Shown here one piece after another: positions 12,436 to 46,155 of a stretch of 64,000 nt of DNA. The first letter of the stretch is position 1; each line of letters starts with the position of its first letter. Where the stretch lies: the NCBI GenBank assembly GCA_963802225.1, contig CAWDHZ010000014.1:4877-68876 (forward strand). Reading direction: 5' to 3'. Under the pieces are notes generated by a model that saw only the letters and a list, made by a program, of their open reading frames with translations, was not told the DNA's origin and searched no databases. The position numbers and the translations under genes were made by a program. Source of the DNA: an uncultured delta proteobacterium (GTDB lineage Bacteria > Desulfobacterota > Syntrophia > Syntrophales > UBA2192).

Positions 12436-12630
12436 TCATTTTCTTTTCATCATATAAACGACAGCCAAAATAGCGAGAAACGCGATAATGATCACAACAA
12501 ACCATCCGGAGTTCATTCCCCACCCCCAACTATCACCCATCATGCCGCCACCTTGACTGCTGCCCATCTGGGCATAGCTGAAAGAAGTCAAAAAAGATAA
12601 TATTAACGCTGCCAGAAGTAATATTTTCAT
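12436..12630 (-). CDS. Small exported Gly/Met/Trp-rich membrane-anchored protein
   Basis: 64 aa: signal peptide (MKILLLAALILSFLTSFSYA), QMGSSQGGGMMGDSWGWGMNSGW, a TM helix, then KRK. It is the last gene of the copper operon. Confidence 0.5.
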   Translation of the reverse strand: MKILLLAALILSFLTSFSYAQMGSSQGGGMMGDSWGWGMNSGWFVVIIIAFLAILAVVYMMKRK

Positions 12631-12746
12631 CTTTCTTCCTCCTTAGGTGGATTTCACTTGGGCCCTATGGATGTCTCACAGCTACGGGTCATTGCACTTT
12701 CATTGAATCGTTATATTGGAAGCATGAGAGGCATCTCATTCTTCCT

Positions 12747-14975
12747 TCAGAGTTGTATGCTCTTCAATCTGAGCGAGTTTCCTATAACGGACACCGAACT
12801 GAAGCTCATGGCGGCGGCAGCGATCATGGGGCTGAGCAGGATGCCCATCGTGGGGTAAAGAACCCCGGCTGCTATGGGAACACCCAGCGAATTGTATACA
12901 AAGGCAAAAAAGAGGTTCTGCTTGATGTTGCGCATCGTTGCCCTGCTCAACTTCCTCGCCCGCACGATCCCCCGAAGATCGCCTTTCACCAGGGTCACTC
13001 CCGCACTCTGCATCGCCACATCCGTCCCGGTCCCCATCGCCACACCGACATGCGCCTGAGCGAGGGCGGGGGCGTCATTGATTCCGTCCCCTGCCATTGC
13101 CACAATCCGTCCCTCACTCTGCAGCCGTTTAACCATTACTGCCTTCTGGTCGGGCAGGACCTCCGCGATCACTTCGTCGATGCCAAGCTTTTTCCCGACG
13201 GCTTCAGCAGTCGTCTTGCTGTCCCCGGTGATCATAACGACCCGGATCCCTTCCTGATGAAGCTTTTCGATCGCCTCGGCTGTCGTTGATTTGATCGGGT
13301 CTGCCACGGCGAGGAGCCCTGCAACCTTTCCGTCCACAGCAACAAACATGGCGGTCTGCCCCTCCTTGCGCATGGACTCTGCCTTGTCAGGGAGATCGCC
13401 CAATGCAATGCCGAGATCTTCAATGAGCCTGCGGTTCCCGAGGGCGAGCTTCCGTCCGTCGATCATACCCGTTACCCCGCGTCCGGTCAGCGATTCAAAG
13501 GACTCAACTTTTGAAGGCGAGATACCCTTTTCTTTTGCACCGGCAACGATCGCTTCAGCCAGAGGGTGCTCGCTTCCCATCTCGATGCTTGCAGCGAGGT
13601 GAAGCAGTGTCTTTTCATCAAATTCTGCCGCGGGGACCACATTGACCAGCTTCGGCCTTCCCTCTGTGAGCGTGCCGGTTTTATCCGTGACAAGAGTATC
13701 GACGGTCTTCATCACCTCGATAGCCTCGGCATTCTTAAAGAGCACGCCTCCCGTAGCCCCTTTGCCCATAGCCACCATGATCGACATCGGCGTTGCCAGG
13801 CCGAGGGCACAGGGGCAGGCGATGATCAGCACCGCAACGGCATTGACAAGAGCGTATGCCATCCGCGGCTCAGGCCCGATCCATGCCCAGACCACGAAAG
13901 TGAGAACCGCAATACCGACTATGGTCGGGACAAAATATCCGGCAACGCTATCCGCCAATTTCTGGATTGGAGCGCGGCTCCGCTGGGCCTCTGCAACCAT
14001 GTGGACGATCTGCGCCAGAAGAGTCTCGGCTCCAACCTTCTCCGCTTTCATGATCAATGTGCCTGTCCCGTTCACGGTGGCGCCGATTACCCGGTCGCCA
14101 ACCTGCTTCGACACGGGAATGGGTTCCCCGGTGATCATGGATTCATCCACCGCGCTTGATCCCCCGGTCACCGTGCCATCGACGGGCACCTTTTCGCCGG
14201 GCCTGACCCTAAGGAGATCTCCTGCCTTGATCTGGTCCATGGGGACGTCCTCTTCGTTGCCATCTCTAAGCCTTCGCGCTGTCTTCGGGGCAAGTCCCAG
14301 CAGGGCCTTTATGGCAGCACCGGTCCGTGACCGCGCCCTCAATTCAAGCACCTGACCGAGGAGTACGAGCGTAGTGATGACCGCTGCCGCCTCAAAATAC
14401 ATTCCCACTTCACCGCTCTCACCACGGAAAGTCTTTGGGAAAAGGCCTGGAAACAGAGCAGCCACAATGCTGTATAGATACGAAAGGCCAACGCCGAGCC
14501 CGATCAGGGTGAACATATTGGGGTTCCAGCTGACCACCGACTGCCAGCCCCTGACAAAGAAGGGCCAGGCTCCCCAGAGGACCACCGGTGTGGCGAGGAT
14601 AAGTTCCATCCACTTCAGAAACTCAGCGGAGAGGAGGCGGTCGATGAAAGAAAGTCCCGGAATGTAGTGGCGCATGGCGATAAGGACCAAAGGGACCGCC
14701 AGCACGGCACTGAACCAGAACCGCCGAGTCATGGAGATGAGTTCGGGATTTTCCTCATCCTCTGCCGTGATTGTTTTCGGCTCGAGGGCCATCCCGCAGA
14801 TCGGACAGCTGCCCGGAGCATTGCGGACGATCTCCGGATGCATCGGGCAGGTCCATTCCGTTTTGGTGACGGTGGCAGAAGGAGCAAAAGGTTCAAGGGC
14901 CATCCCGCATTTGGGACAAGCTCCGGGTTCGGCCTCTCTGATTTCAGGGTGCATGGAACAGGTGTACATATCCAT
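12747..14975 (-). CDS. copA: Copper-translocating P1B-type ATPase
   Basis: Two N-terminal C-x-MHPE...CPxCGM metal-binding modules, the CPC motif ([13 protein letters not shown]), DKTGTLT, and GDGINDAP. The start may be the ATG at 14969 (better GGAG spacing). Confidence 0.9.
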
Positions 14976-15067
14976 CTCCAGCCTTTTCTGCGAAAAATTC
15001 AGTGTAACTCAGCCGGTTCTCATACCGATGGATGTCGGATACACCAGGAAAATGGAGTGCCGGCAGG

Positions 15068-15409
15068 CTACCTCGCTTCGACAATGTAGTTTTTGCCCCC
15101 ATACTGGTTCCGGCAGCGGGTCGAGCAGTGTGGTTCATCGGACACGATGCCGTCGACGACGAACCGGTACTCGTATTTCCCGGGCGAGAGGTAGAAAGTG
15201 ACCTCCCAGTTGCCGTCCGTCTCTTTCTTCAAAGGTCTGGTGGAAGGGTCCCAGTTGTTGAATGTGCCTGCCACTGCTTTCTCGCGGGCATTTGGTGCGC
15301 GGATGTTGAAGGTCACTCGTTTCTTGCCAAGATTACTTGCCATAAATCGCCTCTTGGTAGAGTCCAGTTGAGACTGCTCTCTCTTCCTCTCAATCAACGA
15401 ACATTCCAT
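15068..15409 (-). CDS. CBM48/AMPK-beta glycogen-binding-domain-like small protein
   Basis: VTFNIRAPNAREKAVAGTFNNWDPSTRPLKKETDGNWEVTFYLSPGKYEYRFVVDG is the classical CBM48/GBD pattern. An alternative start lies at 15343. Confidence 0.6.
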   Translation of the reverse strand: MECSLIERKREQSQLDSTKRRFMASNLGKKRVTFNIRAPNAREKAVAGTFNNWDPSTRPLKKETDGNWEVTFYLSPGKYEYRFVVDGIVSDEPHCSTRCRNQYGGKNYIVEAR

Positions 15410-15415
15410 GATGAT

Positions 15416-15829
15416 CTACTTCGTCTCCGTGGGGAAACCGGCTTCCAACCACTCATTCCACCCACCCTTCAGGGCGTAGACCTTCTTGAACCCCAGCCTG
15501 ATCATATCCTGTGCCACCCAGGCACTGGTTGCTTCGCTGTGTCAGGCACAGTAAAGGACGATCGTCTTGTCCTTTGGATACTTATCCGCCCAGGATTTTA
15601 CTTCCTGCTTGGGGTCTTCCCGGACGGCGCCCTTGATCATCATGGTACTTTTAGCCAGATCGACGGGTTGACGGACATCGATGATGATTACATCCGGCTT
15701 GCCCAGCATCGACTTGAGCTCTTCCTTGCTCATCCTCGGCACCTGTGCCGAGGCGTCGCTTCCGGCGAGCAGAAACACTGCCCCCATTATCAAAGCCATC
15801 ACGAAGACTGCGATCACCTTGAATCTCAT
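15416..15829 (-). CDS. Exported rhodanese-domain protein with in-frame TGA (candidate selenocysteine, C-A-U active-site loop); alternatively a nonsense pseudogene
   Basis: The track ORF 15542..15829 stops at TGA after ...KTIVLYCA. The next 41 codons stay in frame (HSEATSAWVAQDMIRLGFKKVYALKGGWNEWLEAGFPTETK, TAG at 15416-15418) and complete the rhodanese fold. There is an N-terminal signal peptide, a SECIS-like hairpin downstream, and selA in the same window. Confidence 0.6.
15508..15528 (-). promoter_or_regulatory. SECIS-like hairpin 13 nt downstream of the in-frame UGA
   Basis: The mRNA reads UGA-CACAGCGAAGCAA-CCAGUGCC-UGGGU-GGCACAGG. That is an 8-bp stem with one A.A mismatch and a 5-nt G-rich loop that starts 21 nt after the UGA. 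Confidence 0.5.
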
Positions 15830-15934
15830 CGTCTGATACCTCCTTTTTCGACTTTATTAACCGCCACAGAAAATCGTTATGTTTGCGCAATGCGTCAAGA
15901 TTCGTTTGAACGGAGCCGAATGCGCACTTCGAGA

Positions 15935-16327
15935 TCATCTCGCATCGATGGTAAATTTCGCGGATACCGTCTTTCCTTTATGGGTAATCTTAATGGTGAG
16001 ATTCCAGGAACCGGACATTGGAAAGTCGAGCATTGAATGGTAGGTTTTCCCTTGAAGCTGGGCTTCGGCATTGTAGTTCATTGCAGGCATTCCGGACATG
16101 GCCGGCATGGCGTAATTTGCGATAACCTTCGCATCCGTCACATAATTGCCGCTTGCATCCTTGACGGTTATTTCCAGATCGTTCTTTCCTTTAACCGCGC
16201 TTTTATCCATGGCAAGCTCGACAGAATAGTCCCCTGCCCTTTTCTTCACTTCATAGGCCTTTGCGAAAACAACCCCGGCTGACAACAGCACGATCAAGGT
16301 AACTGCCACGAATCTTTTCATAGTCAT
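15935..16327 (-). CDS. YtkA/FixH-like exported protein with a Met-rich loop
   Basis: Signal peptide and a beta-rich 130-aa protein with YAMPAMSGMPAMNY. It resembles YtkA-like domains found next to heavy-metal genes. Confidence 0.5.
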   Translation of the reverse strand: MTMKRFVAVTLIVLLSAGVVFAKAYEVKKRAGDYSVELAMDKSAVKGKNDLEITVKDASGNYVTDAKVIANYAMPAMSGMPAMNYNAEAQLQGKTYHSMLDFPMSGSWNLTIKITHKGKTVSAKFTIDAR

Positions 16328-16367
16328 TTGCCTCCATCCATTTTCGATATGGAGTATTTATGTTTTT

Positions 16368-17297
16368 CTACTGTGCGGAACTCATACGGCCTGTCTGTTT
16401 GTTGATGAGGACCTTGTCAACAAGGGCGTTGCTCTTCGTTACGACTTCCGCCTCGAAGGCATCTCCCTTATCCTTGATCTTTCCTGGTTTCAGGTTGGGA
16501 TTCCGGCTGGACTTGACGTAATCCTCCATCATAGCCTTGGCATCTTTCATTTCCAGAGGTTTCCCCGGTGCAGCATATGACTGTCCGTAACCGTAGCCTC
16601 GGCCGCCCATCATGCCGCCACCCATGCCGGAGCCCTGCCCAGAACCCATCATGCCTCCGCCCATCATGCCGGGACCCATGCCATATCCATAGCCCCCTCC
16701 CTTCATCATCCCGGGGCCCATGGTGCCGCCCATTTTGAGTGCATGGTCGAACATGACAAGGTGATGGCGGGTCTGCAGAAGGATGTTGTTGAGTATGCCG
16801 GCCGAATCACGGTCCGCGGCGTTCTTCACGAGCCACTCGTAGCGAGGGATCAGATCCTGCTCCATCTTTACACACAGCTCGAAGGCCTCGGTGATCGTTT
16901 TCGTCACAGCGACCGCTGCCGTCTTGCCCTCGGCTGGCAAGCCGTAGGCGGCAAAGAGCCGTTCAATGGCCCTCACATGATCCTCCTCCTGGGGAATGAC
17001 CATGTGATAGGGCATATAGGCGTTGAATTTCTCCGCGTCGGCTGCGTATTGGGCGTAAGAAAGACGTTCCAGGGCCAAGACGTCCCGGAGCTTCTGTGTC
17101 CATTCCTGGCTCTTTGGAGCCGGGAGCTTGTCCGGCACGTCCGGGGCAATCGGGTAGCCCATCATCCCCCCGCCCATACCGTAGCCGGAACCACTGCCGC
17201 CCATCATGCCTCCGCCCATGCCGTGCTGGGCCATAACGGGCATGGCAACCAGAAGCGACAGCAACACGGTAAAAATCCATAATGTTCTCTTTTTCAT
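16368..17297 (-). CDS. Exported ferritin-like (DUF2202-type) protein flanked by Met/Gly-rich repeats
   Basis: Signal peptide, then HGMGGGMMGGSGSGYGMGGGMMGY at the N-terminus and GMGPGMMGGGMMGSGQGSGMGGGMMGG near the C-terminus. The core ERLSYAQYAADAEKF...EEDHVRAIERL resembles DUF2202. Confidence 0.6.
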   Translation of the reverse strand: MKKRTLWIFTVLLSLLVAMPVMAQHGMGGGMMGGSGSGYGMGGGMMGYPIAPDVPDKLPAPKSQEWTQKLRDVLALERLSYAQYAADAEKFNAYMPYHMVIPQEEDHVRAIERLFAAYGLPAEGKTAAVAVTKTITEAFELCVKMEQDLIPRYEWLVKNAADRDSAGILNNILLQTRHHLVMFDHALKMGGTMGPGMMKGGGYGYGMGPGMMGGGMMGSGQGSGMGGGMMGGRGYGYGQSYAAPGKPLEMKDAKAMMEDYVKSSRNPNLKPGKIKDKGDAFEAEVVTKSNALVDKVLINKQTGRMSSAQ

Positions 17298-17803: not shown

Positions 17804-18112
17804 TCACTCGGAGAGATCCTGCTTCAACCGATTGTATTCCTCTTTTGTGATCTCGCCCTTTGCATAACGCTTTTTCAATATCTCCAGCGGTGTCTCGCTG
17901 ACGCTTCCCCGCCTCTGGGTCTGCACGATAAAATAGATTGCAATAGCGACAACAATCACAAGGATCAGCCACATGAACCATCCTCCATATCCATAGTGCA
18001 TCATCGGCCAGCCGCTTCCCGGCCCATGCATGGGTCCAGATCGATCGTCTCCTGCGCAGGAAAACAGAAAAGCGACAGAGAACAAAATGGTACGGTTCAT
18101 TAATGTGTTCAT
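17804..18112 (-). CDS. SHOCT-domain membrane lipoprotein with a Gly/Met/Trp-rich segment
   Basis: Lipobox-like LFSC, then GPMHGPGSGWPMMHYGYGGW, a TM helix, and a C-terminal PLEILKKRYAKGEITKEEYNRLKQDL (SHOCT motif). AGGAGG RBS. Confidence 0.7.
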   Translation of the reverse strand: MNTLMNRTILFSVAFLFSCAGDDRSGPMHGPGSGWPMMHYGYGGWFMWLILVIVVAIAIYFIVQTQRRGSVSETPLEILKKRYAKGEITKEEYNRLKQDLSE

Positions 18113-43693: not shown

Positions 43694-43781
43694 AAGGCTT
43701 ATGGCGTAGGGCTTATGGCAAGATCATCCGTTTCCGTCTTTTCTTTCTTTGCCTTAAGCCTTTAGCCCTAAGCCTTTTGCC
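43693..43781. repeat. Inverted pair of tandem heptamer arrays (TANGGCN x4 at 43693-43722; GCCYTWW x4 at 43751-43781)
   Basis: taaggcttatggcgtagggcttatggcaag ... gccttaagcctttagccctaagccttttgcc. The arms are 21/26 complementary. The right arm contains the rluD TAG (43768-43770). Confidence 0.7.
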
Positions 43782-44737
43782 ACTTCCTTAGAAAATCGAT
43801 CACCTCGGCCAGATCCGCCGGCAGCGGCGACTCGAACGCCATCTCCTCTCCCGTTACGGGGTGCAGGAAGGAGAGGCGGCTGGCGTGGAGGGCCTGGCGC
43901 GAGAGTTTCTTCAACACCGCCCGCAATGCCGGGCTCTCGACGGCCCGCTTCGTGGCGCCGTAGACGCTGTCCCCGGCGACGGGGTGCCCGAGGGCGCTCA
44001 GGTGCACGCGGATCTGGTGCGTGCGGCCCGTCTCGATCTTCGCCTCGAGGAGGGTGAAGGCGCCGAAGCGCTCCAGGACCCTCCAGCGCGTGAGGGCCGC
44101 CTTTCCCCGGCGGCTTGCCGTGGACATTTTCTTTCGCTCCACGGGGTGACGCCCCACGGGGGCATCGGCGACGCCTTCGTTCTCGCGGAGATTGCCGTGC
44201 ACCAGGGCGGTGTAGCGCTTGGAGACCTGGCGCCTCTTGAACTGCTCCGCAAGATGCCTGTGCGCCTCGTCGGACTTGGCCGCCACCATGAGGCCCGAGG
44301 TCCCCTTGTCGAGTCGGTGGACGATCCCGGGCCGCATCACCCCGCCAATCCCCGAGAGGTTCCGGCAGTGGTACTGCAGGGCATTCACGAGGGTGCCGCT
44401 GTAATTGCCCGCTGCGGGGTGGACGACCATGCCGGCGGGCTTGTCGACGACGATGATCGCCCCGTCCTCATAGAGAATGTGGAGGGGGATCGCCTCGGGA
44501 ACGATCTCGGAAGGAACCGGGGGCGGCTTGCGAAAGGAGACCTTCTCGCCGTGGTTTCAGGCGGTGGCTCGCCCTCACGGGCTCCCCGTCAACGATTGCA
44601 TCCCCGTCCTCGATGAGACGCTTGGCCTGGGAGCGCGAGAGGGTCGGGTCCTTCTGCGGCAAAAAGACATCCAGCCTCAGGCCCTGCTCGTCCTCGGCGA
44701 CGATGAACTCCGACCGCTTTCCCTCTTCCTGTGTCAT
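43768..44737 (-). pseudogene. rluD: 23S rRNA pseudouridine synthase RluD, interrupted by a 1-nt frameshift near 44551-44554
   Basis: ORF 44468..44737 holds the S4 domain (...LSRSQAKRLIEDGDAIVDGEPVRASHRLKP). ORF 43768..44430 holds the catalytic core (HRLDKGTSGLMV...). Hand translation in the third frame restores GEKVSFRKPPPVPSEIVPEAIPLHILYEDGAIIVVDKPAGMVVHP across the gap. Confidence 0.8.
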
Positions 44738-46155
44738 CCCTTCTCACGCGCAGCCAGGACGGCCCTCAGGGCGTTGCGGACCTCGGGGAGCTCCTGTGCG
44801 GCCAGGGTCCGGGGGTCGAAGAGAATCTCGTCCCCGGCGATCCGGGCCACGACGGGCACGGGGAGGGCCCTGAGCTTCTCGTCGATGCGGGCAGCCGACA
44901 ACTTCTCGGAGCGAAGGGCGACCAGCACGGTGGGGATCTGCTGCGTCGGCAGCGACCCGCCTCCGGACATGGAGAATCCCTTCTTCAGGGCGAGCGTGAC
45001 ACCGGGGAAATTCTCTTTCTTCAACGTCTGCAGGAGCCTTCTTGCCCGACGGGTGGCGGCCTCGACGGGTTCCGTGAGCGCCGTGAGCGAGCGCAGCCCC
45101 GCAATGGCCTCCTGCTCGTTCAGGTAGAGCTTCGCCGTTGCCTCCAGCGCTGCGAGGGTCAGCTTGTCGATGCGAAGGGCCCGGTTCAGCGGGTTTTTCC
45201 TGATGCTTTCCAGCTGGTCTTTCTTTCCGACAATGATCCCCGCCTGGGGACCGCCGAGGAGCTTGTCGCCGCTGAAGGTGATCACGTCGGCCCCCTCCTT
45301 CACGGCATCTCCCACGGTGGGCTCGCGCTGCAGACCGTACTTCTCCAGTCGGATGAAACAGCCGCTTCCCAGGTCGTTCATCACGGGGATCCCGTGACGG
45401 CGGCCCAGCGTGACCAGTTCCGGCACGGGGACCTCTTCGGTGAAGCCCACGATCCGGAAGTTGCTCGTGTGGACCTTCATGATCAGGGCCGTGTTCTCGT
45501 TGACGGCCTTCTCGTAGTCGGACAGGTGGGTACGGTTCGTGGCCCCGACCTCGCGCAGGACGGCACCGCTTCGCTCCATGACCTCGGGGATGCGGAACTC
45601 GCCGCCGATCTCGATGAGCTCGCCCCGCGACACGATGGCTTCCCGGCCCCGGGCAAGGGTGCTCAGGACGAGCAGTACCGCCGCGGCGTTGTTGTTGACG
45701 ACGAGGGCGTCCTCGGCCCCCGTGAGCTCGCAGAGAATCTCCCGGATGTGGTCGTACCGCAACCCCCGTTTGCCCGAGGCGAGGTCGAACTCCACGTTGG
45801 AGTAGCCCCGGCTCACCTCGACGATGCGCTCCAGGGCCTCTTTGCAAAGAGGCGCCCGCCCGAGGTTCGTGTGGAGGATGATGCCTGTGGCATTGATCAC
45901 GCGCCGCAGGCTGTACTCGTGGAGCCGCTCGATGCGGGCCGCAGCGGCATCGGCTGCGGATTCATTCGAGGGGACCGAAGCGGCATCCCAGGAGCCCGTA
46001 AGGATTGCAGAGCGGATCCCGGCCACGACCTCCCGGATCGACTCGAGGACTTTTTCCCGGGGGGCCCTTTCGAGGGTTCCGCGCTTCTCGAGAAGAACGA
46101 GGACCTCGTCGATCTTGGGCAGGCTCTTCAGGAGGCTCTTCTGACGCTCATCCAT
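44734..46155 (-). CDS. selA: L-seryl-tRNA(Sec) selenium transferase
   Basis: 473 aa. RRVINATGIILHTNLGRAPL...TFSGDKLLGGPQAGIIVGKK (PLP lysine region). Confidence 0.9.
   Translation of the reverse strand: MDERQKSLLKSLPKIDEVLVLLEKRGTLERAPREKVLESIREVVAGIRSAILTGSWDAASVPSNESAADAAAARIERLHEYSLRRVINATGIILHTNLGRAPLCKEALERIVEVSRGYSNVEFDLASGKRGLRYDHIREILCELTGAEDALVVNNNAAAVLLVLSTLARGREAIVSRGELIEIGGEFRIPEVMERSGAVLREVGATNRTHLSDYEKAVNENTALIMKVHTSNFRIVGFTEEVPVPELVTLGRRHGIPVMNDLGSGCFIRLEKYGLQREPTVGDAVKEGADVITFSGDKLLGGPQAGIIVGKKDQLESIRKNPLNRALRIDKLTLAALEATAKLYLNEQEAIAGLRSLTALTEPVEAATRRARRLLQTLKKENFPGVTLALKKGFSMSGGGSLPTQQIPTVLVALRSEKLSAARIDEKLRALPVPVVARIAGDEILFDPRTLAAQELPEVRNALRAVLAAREKG

Follow-up and report, generated by a model that had tools for sequence, protein, structure and literature searches.

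A rhodanese_LYCAU-family gene with a very probable selenocysteine codon, located among copper-type genes in an uncultured delta proteobacterium

Introduction

Among the selenocysteine (Sec, U)-containing rhodaneses, a CxU form is listed in the selenoproteome reviews of 2022 and 2026 (PMC9312934, PMC13188914), both of which credit it to Zhang and Gladyshev (2005, Bioinformatics 21:2580) and class it among the predicted selenoproteins. A UxU variant was reported in 2007 from the metagenome of the Olavius algarvensis delta-symbionts (PMC1976440, Fig. 3A). In NCBIfam, the form is described by the curated equivalog model NF041203, "rhodanese_LYCAU, rhodanese-related (seleno)protein". Here, we analyzed one gene of this kind, located on the minus strand at positions 15416 to 15829 of a 64,000-nucleotide stretch of DNA from an uncultured delta proteobacterium of the order Syntrophales (GenBank assembly GCA_963802225.1, contig CAWDHZ010000014.1, positions 4,877 to 68,876). 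This whole 64-kb stretch is referred to below as the window, and all coordinates are given within it. The gene encodes a single-domain rhodanese with a signal-peptide-like N terminus, and its reading frame is interrupted in the active-site loop by a TGA codon, which is almost certainly a genuine selenocysteine codon.

Several other rhodaneses invite comparison. The remaining Sec-containing types (PMC13188914) comprise UxxS (form 1), UxxG (forms 2 and 4), and the TsoB rhodanese/DsbD fusion with UxxxxU (NF045694). They resemble the window protein in having a rhodanese domain whose Sec lies inside or close to the active-site loop, but in these proteins Sec replaces the catalytic Cys, whereas the window protein keeps a Cys at the catalytic position and carries Sec at +2. 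Its match to the TsoB model was weak and partial (31.8 bits versus a cut-off of 805). Among rhodaneses without Sec, Sud of Wolinella succinogenes is a polysulfide-sulfur transferase and PspE of Escherichia coli is a periplasmic rhodanese, each with one catalytic Cys. Both share with the window protein an exported, single-domain rhodanese fold but contain only one Cys and no Sec, and their loop carries basic residues (CKTAAR in Sud), whereas the window protein reads C-A-U-H-S-E, with a conserved acidic residue and a second chalcogen. This difference in the loop suggests a different chemistry.

Results

The minus-strand gene, as defined by its sequence, translation, and Pfam and NCBIfam profile matches, comprises 137 codons including one UGA (Sec96). 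It starts with an ATG at 15829, with AAAGGAGG immediately 5' of it, and ends with a TAG at 15418-15416. The upstream part of the open reading frame (ORF) ends in ...KDKTIVLYCA and is followed by the in-frame TGA at 15544-15542, after which the frame stays open for 41 codons up to the TAG. This downstream part, HSEATSAWVAQDMIRLGFKKVYALKGGWNEWLEAGFPTETK, reads HSEATSAW...GGWNEWLEAGFPTETK in translation. A program-made list of ORFs cuts the gene into a 95-residue and a 33-residue ORF. When Cys was placed at the TGA, the Pfam Rhodanese domain (PF00581) covered residues 35 to 129 (E = 9e-19) and thus spanned the TGA. A first-pass annotation, made from the sequence alone, had described a rhodanese-like ORF with a TGA in its active-site loop and the rest of the domain encoded in frame behind it, and the sequence, the translation, and the Pfam match bear this out. 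The gap to the next gene, which it gave as 7 nt, was measured as 6 nt from the TAG to the ATG at 15409. The active-site codons TGT-GCC-TGA (Cys94-Ala95-Sec96) occupy positions 15542 to 15550 on the minus strand.

The product, again with Cys in place of Sec, matched NF041203 with 173.1 bits against a cut-off of 115 (E = 1.7e-51), its residues 15 to 137 aligning with profile positions 5 to 126 of 126. It contains the L-Y-C-A-U motif (...IVLYCA-TGA), with the TGA two codons past the conserved Cys. The window gene agrees with the family in motif, domain, length, Sec position, signal-peptide-like N terminus, and Sec-rich anaerobic Thermodesulfobacteriota hosts. There is no structural difference, and only the setting differs, namely, a CopA/YtkA/Met-rich gene cluster shared by the window and L002. 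The latter is the locus of the closest relative (89% identity), which belongs to an uncultured "delta proteobacterium" metagenome-assembled genome (MAG); the next closest relatives are from Syntrophaceae MAGs. The family itself has a wide distribution among anaerobic Thermodesulfobacteriota, Methylomirabilota, and Nitrospirota. The window gene is an intact and routine member of this already catalogued, motif-named family, and both the U-x-U variant and the selenocysteine insertion sequence (SECIS) logic are prior knowledge. The initial suggestion that a Cys-x-Sec version might be new consequently does not stand, since the form is already covered by NF041203 and by the inventories cited above (PMC9312934, PMC13188914). 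The U-x-U form (PMC1976440) belongs to the same family, in which the window gene retains Cys (TGT) at the first position and therefore has a single Sec.

At the N terminus, a signal-peptide-like segment, MRFKVIAVFVMALIMGAVFLLAGSDASA/Q (15743 to 15829, minus strand; the slash marks the cleavage site), was read by eye as a Sec-type (secretory) signal with an A-x-A cleavage site, and the cleavage region, likewise read by eye, is ...AGSDASA/QVPRM. On inspection of their sequences, the homologues also start with a basic and hydrophobic N terminus followed by a small-residue site. The presence of these features in every member indicates that the rhodanese_LYCAU family is probably exported, and the window product, for which a signal peptide had been noted at first pass, is by the same token a probable envelope protein.

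The status of the TGA was assessed by comparison. A genome scan with one genome per species gave 80 loci, and the family set analyzed below comprised 72 members, i.e., 71 copies from the fetched loci and the window gene. In addition, a homology search returned 700 relatives, of which the 120 closest clusters were inspected. The Sec column was TGA in all 72 members and TAG or TAA in none of them, and the Cys column was TGY or TGA. The true terminators of the same 72 genes were TGA in 31, TAG in 22, and TAA in 19. Exactly 41 codons followed the TGA in 64 of the 72 members, and mean between-species identity was higher for the 41 residues after the TGA (59.8%) than for the 41 residues before the motif (50.1%). 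Outside the TGA-containing set, the Cys-form homologues P0052 (LYCACHDE) and P0061 (LYCACPDE) have TGT at the Sec column, and rarer sense-codon homologues have Ser, Gln, or Leu. The first-pass annotation had proposed examining this column in homologues, and the outcome, an invariant TGA alongside Cys forms, speaks for its selenoprotein candidate.

These data bear on the possibility that the locus is a nonsense pseudogene or yields only a truncated, 95-residue product. Public gene callers annotate exactly such a product, and the window protein is present in public collections only as a 95-residue call (P0001) ending at the TGA; that tRNA-Sec, selB, and selD were not seen in the 64-kb window would also suit this explanation. 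The same call recurs, at least 85 of the 120 closest homologue clusters being recorded as ∼95-residue products that end at the same position, down to ∼55% identity. A truncation would, however, break the Rhodanese domain in the middle of the active site, and it would have to coexist with a covarying hairpin downstream of the TGA (described below). A pseudogene cannot explain a TGA that all 72 species-level genomes have at this codon, the tail of exactly 41 codons kept in 64 of them, or the stronger conservation of the tail relative to the part preceding the TGA, and we regard this explanation as very improbable.

An alternative genetic code (code 4 or 25) or a read-through that inserts Trp or Gly rather than Sec might be considered as well, since a number of homologues have W at this column in their database records. 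One of them, L001, was checked and does not give the recorded product under translation table 11, where it reads ...LYCS-TGA-PNEETSA...; the "W" in full-length relatives stems from short contigs on which an alternative code was applied to the TGA, as verified on L001. Moreover, 9 of the 22 confidently identified genes in the window, among them selA, copA, glgA, hisD, and prfA, end at a TGA, which means that the genetic code is standard, and TGA also terminates the 31 family genes counted above. The hosts of family members, which are Thermodesulfobacteriota and similar phyla, use the standard code, and where the DNA could be checked, the sense-codon homologues had Cys, Ser, Gln, or Leu but never TGG Trp. 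Recoding of TGA by a variant code is accordingly the least probable of the explanations weighed here, with hardly any chance of being correct. When the 64-kb window was scanned for other in-frame TGA genes, all candidates proved to be ordinary genes whose frames had been extended spuriously at the upstream end.

TGA-x-TGA, i.e., U-x-U, was present in 8 of the 72 members (L015, L029, L047, L051, L054, L063, L072, and L073), all of which keep the hairpin. By analogy with L001 and these eight genomic loci, P0005 and P0020, which are recorded with "W-x-W", are probably also U-x-U. The two UGAs of such members are 6 nt apart and would have to share a single SECIS. The U-x-U form appears widespread in soil and sediment MAGs, and some genomes have two LYCAU paralogues, as seen for L036:961 and L036:8282, which are within 7.3 kb of each other, and for L015 and L029, which are from the same MAG (RBG_16_49_23).

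At least part of the machinery for selenocysteine is present in the host, as the window contains selA, which encodes L-seryl-tRNA(Sec) selenium transferase (44734 to 46155, minus strand; TIGR00474, 613.1 bits versus a cut-off of 267.9) and had been recognized already at first pass. This gene is alone, between an RluA/RluD-family pseudouridine synthase gene and a HemN-like radical SAM gene (44431-44736; 43768-46155). There is thus no selAB operon here, and selB would have to lie at another place in the genome.

Downstream of the TGA, the alignment of the 72 sequences was free of gaps from the Cys codon to +60 and revealed a conserved hairpin core at 15511 to 15525 (minus strand), consisting of the stem GUGCC (15525-15521), the loop UGGGU (15520-15516), and the stem GGCAC (15515-15511). 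This core of a 5-bp stem and a 5-nt loop begins 16 nt 3' of the UGA and was predicted independently by RNAalifold. Its five pairs are all standard in 71 of 71 distinct sequences. Among these, the second pair (27-39) is U-A in 51, C-G in 16, U-G in 4, and broken in none, the 16 double changes from U-A to C-G lying at synonymous third positions (Ser AGY, Ala GCR). The covariation was significant in Fisher's exact test (p = 1.8e-10, uncorrected for phylogeny) and exceeded that in all 500 column shuffles and in every slid control. Third-position entropy was 0.12 to 0.82 bits in the stem codons versus 1.28 to 1.83 bits in other, equally conserved four-fold codons of the same gene. The loop follows the pattern N-G-K-N-U, in which the G, the second loop nucleotide, is invariant. 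In L036:961, the closing pair of the hairpin shows a compensatory change (GCGCU/AGCGC).

In the window, the hairpin extends to an 8-bp form, CCAGUGCC-UGGGU-GGCACAGG (15508 to 15528, minus strand), which begins 13 nt 3' of the UGA and is present in the minimum free energy fold. The additional pairs of the extended stem (C-G, C-G, and an A.A mismatch) are specific to the window lineage, and the outer pair 23-43 fails to form in 50 of 71 homologues and the outer pair 24-42 in 31 of 71. The hairpin proposed from the single sequence is therefore right in position, sequence, and presence in the minimum free energy fold, but of its 8-bp stem only the inner 5 bp are conserved family-wide. Bacterial SECIS elements, according to criteria reportedly set out by Zhang and Gladyshev in 2005, are stem-loops that lie within the coding sequence a short distance 3' of the UGA and whose apical loop has a conserved G; the window element is a stem-loop shortly after the UGA with an invariant loop G. 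Three homologues without the TGA were available as controls, and the core pairs were intact in 5 of 5 positions in the Cys form L083, in 4 of 5 in the Cys form L082, and in 3 of 5 in the Ser form L084, which suggests, for these three sequences, that the hairpin may decay once the TGA is lost.

To place the motif in the fold, an AlphaFold2 model was made of P0052, the nearest genuine Cys-form homologue, which is 50% identical to the window protein. The domain was modeled with a predicted local distance difference test (pLDDT) score of ∼98, and DSSP assigned a strand to residues 87 to 91, a loop to C92-A93-C94-H95-D96-E97, and a helix from residue 98. Foldseek searches with this model returned rhodanese domains only, the top matches having template modeling (TM) scores of ∼0.65 to 0.69. 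Sud was among these matches and also among the closest solved sequences (PDB 1qxn, E = 7e-8). Transferred from the P0052 model, window Cys94 would occupy the canonical catalytic position and Sec96 the third position of the six-residue loop Cys94-Ala-Sec96-His-Ser-Glu99, in agreement with the earlier placement of the C-x-U inside the rhodanese active-site loop, given that the model loop C-A-C-H-D-E lies between the central strand and the helix. The sixth loop position is Glu, encoded by GAR in every one of the 72 members. In true thiosulfate sulfurtransferases, a basic residue or Thr closes the loop (CRxGx[R/T]) and forms an anion-binding cradle. The window loop C-A-U-H-S-E does not have this closing residue, and according to the model, the invariant Glu99 would take the place of the Arg or Thr found at the closing position of the loop in thiosulfate sulfurtransferases. 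Conservation does not extend to the His that follows Sec, a position that is usually Pro or variable in the family.

The rhodanese gene is part of a co-directional, copper-type cluster of six genes on the minus strand (12436 to 17297), which are separated by gaps of 40, 105, 6, 92, and 116 nt; terminator-like sites within the cluster were not above background. The first gene (16368-17297) encodes a Met/Gly-rich, ferritin-like protein of 309 residues, for which the Pfam Ferritin match was below threshold (E = 0.0098) and no NCBIfam match was obtained. This protein is exported and has GMGGGMMGG repeats in N- and C-terminal low-complexity regions around a weak ferritin-like core, with 80% identity to its L002 counterpart; it might serve in the periplasm to bind Cu(I), as a protein outside the named families. 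Profile matches identified the genes on either side of the rhodanese gene as those of a YtkA-like Met-rich protein (16327-15935) and a CBM48/AMPK1_CBM protein (15409-15068), followed by that of CopA, a copper-type P1B ATPase (14975-12747; TIGR01511, 612 bits). These are the neighbors that the first-pass annotation had named. Past copA, the last gene (12630-12436) encodes a small Met/Gly-rich exported peptide of 64 residues without a family match.

Several features of these neighbors were observed in passing. The CBM48/AMPK-beta glycogen-binding-type protein (15068-15409), located between the rhodanese and copA, lacks a signal peptide in its ORF as called and is 80% identical to its L002 counterpart; a carbohydrate-binding module is an odd part for a copper cluster. 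By sequence, the N terminus of CopA has, rather than a classical HMA ferredoxin-like domain, two Cys-x-x-His-Pro-Glu...Cys-Pro-x-Cys-Gly-Met motifs, which read CSMHPEI...CPKCGM and CPMHPEI...CPICGM. A 102-residue SHOCT-domain protein (17804-18112, minus strand), which is membrane-bound or exported, has Met/Gly/Trp-rich stretches; together with the 64-residue peptide it flanks the cluster, and both fit a metal-stress island.

When the ten window neighbors were compared with all 80 loci, the cluster was common only to L002. De novo clustering of neighbors found no family-wide neighbor, the widest sharing being 14 of 72 loci. A Cu-type ATPase occurred within 5 kb in 5 of the 72 loci, which represent two independent lineages. 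In the second lineage (L039, L065, and L070), a Cu-type P1B ATPase gene is directly convergent with the rhodanese gene, on the opposite strand. In L065 (2862-8946, minus strand), a cbb3 oxidase cluster (COX1/CcoN, FixO, and a cytochrome c subunit) ends in a CcoI/FixI-like HMA P-type ATPase. The three loci are mutually syntenic (CcoN 81 to 90% identical) and were therefore counted as one event. No conserved linkage to copper genes was found across the family. Of the copper operon proposed at first pass, the co-directional cluster with Met-rich proteins and copA stands, but the family as a whole does not show it: the full cluster recurs only in L002, and a Cu-type ATPase gene next door only in one further lineage.

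On this evidence, a copper-specific selenoprotein may be envisaged, in which the C-x-U acts on Cu(I), sulfide, or selenium in the envelope and the function of the family is copper handling. Such a role would agree with the tight co-directional spacing with the genes for the YtkA-like protein, the Met/Gly-rich ferritin-like protein, CopA, and the Met/Gly-rich peptide, with the retention of this arrangement in L002, with the neighborhood of L039, L065, and L070, where the gene adjoins a cbb3 oxidase cluster and a CcoI-type Cu ATPase gene, and with a loop in which the anion-binding Arg is missing and a conserved Glu is present. It is at odds with the scarcity of Cu ATPase genes near family members (the 5 of 72 loci in two lineages, with the opposite strand in the second), with neighbor families that are shared by 14 of 72 loci at most, and with the lack of conservation of the His after Sec. 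Two independent copper adjacencies among 72 loci are a hint, not evidence, and copper handling as the family function appears improbable. That the Cys-x-Sec/Glu loop might bind Cu(I), or might deliver or resolve sulfane S or Se, in the protection or maturation of envelope cuproproteins, so that both adjacencies to Cu P1B-ATPase genes, the same-strand CopA/YtkA one and the convergent ccoNOP-ccoI one, would reflect function, is in our estimation similarly doubtful, and the Cu(I) or sulfide chemistry put forward in the first-pass annotation is speculation.

Discussion

Taken together, we consider it very likely that the locus is an intact gene for an exported LYCAU-family rhodanese selenoprotein, with the UGA decoded as Sec and the hairpin located in the coding sequence. 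In the proposed explanation, the UGA at 15544-15542 would be read as selenocysteine when SelB with Sec-tRNA(Sec) is recruited by the short hairpin in the coding sequence, by analogy with characterized bacterial SECIS elements. The product would be ∼109 residues long after removal of the signal peptide and would be exported as an ordinary rhodanese fold. Its Cys/Sec pair, we infer, probably cycles through a Cys-S-Se-Sec selenenylsulfide or passes sulfane S or Se between the two chalcogens. Given the lack of an anion-binding basic residue and the presence of a more nucleophilic second chalcogen at +2, a classical thiosulfate:cyanide sulfurtransferase is unlikely. The role would rather be in periplasmic redox or persulfide handling, in a setting comparable to that of Sud or PspE with a different active-site chemistry. 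As the weakest part of this proposal, in the copper cluster of the window genome and L002, the protein may serve to hold envelope thiols or sulfide chemistry in a state that does not interfere with Cu(I) efflux.

A number of observations weigh against the selenoprotein reading or against parts of it. Experimental work on the rhodanese_LYCAU family was not found in the literature, and reviews list the form as "predicted". No tRNA-Sec was found in the 64-kb window, and selB and selD were absent among the larger ORFs scanned there. The conserved stem, at 5 bp, is short for a bacterial SECIS, and the folding energy of the single sequence was not better than that of shuffled controls (z = -0.42). 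Rfam gave no SECIS-type match, either for the whole window at gathering thresholds or for 15380-15620 at permissive thresholds, from which it follows that Rfam evidently has no model for this element; the TGA and its SECIS-like hairpin are supported comparatively, while the covariance-model check suggested at first pass returned no match in Rfam. Furthermore, the Cys form L083 (1039-1428; LYCACPDE, TGT) keeps a perfect GUGCC/GGCAC hairpin, so the stem could partly reflect conserved Ser-Ala...Ala codons. The constraint on synonymous sites argues against mere conservation of these codons, and L083 may be a recent Sec-to-Cys conversion with a "fossil" SECIS. Regarding the active site, sequence-only alignment to solved rhodaneses is ambiguous about the catalytic residue: aligned without gaps, 6mxv has its catalytic Cys opposite the Sec column, whereas Sud, with a gap, aligns to Cys94. 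The assignment of Cys94 rests on DSSP analysis of a predicted homologue model. Sec as the canonical catalytic residue, as in the 6mxv alignment, was rejected in view of the strand, loop, and helix boundaries of the model and of the first Cys, which is kept in all non-Sec variants. Finally, we only infer the mechanism, whether redox or persulfide based, and the role in copper handling.

No new kind of system is revealed by this locus. Its value lies in part in annotation, as gene calls for the window protein and for dozens of homologues either stop at the TGA, giving a 95-residue fragment, or place Trp there, which makes the locus a clean example of the systematic misannotation of selenoproteins in MAGs. 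For the family, it draws attention to the unusual Cys-x-Sec (sometimes Sec-x-Sec) center in a rhodanese loop that has lost the anion-binding residue. The placement in a copper cluster is one concrete functional hint, though not a family-wide one, and if the copper-linked reading were true, this would be the first case of a selenoprotein with an assigned role in extracytoplasmic copper homeostasis in bacteria.

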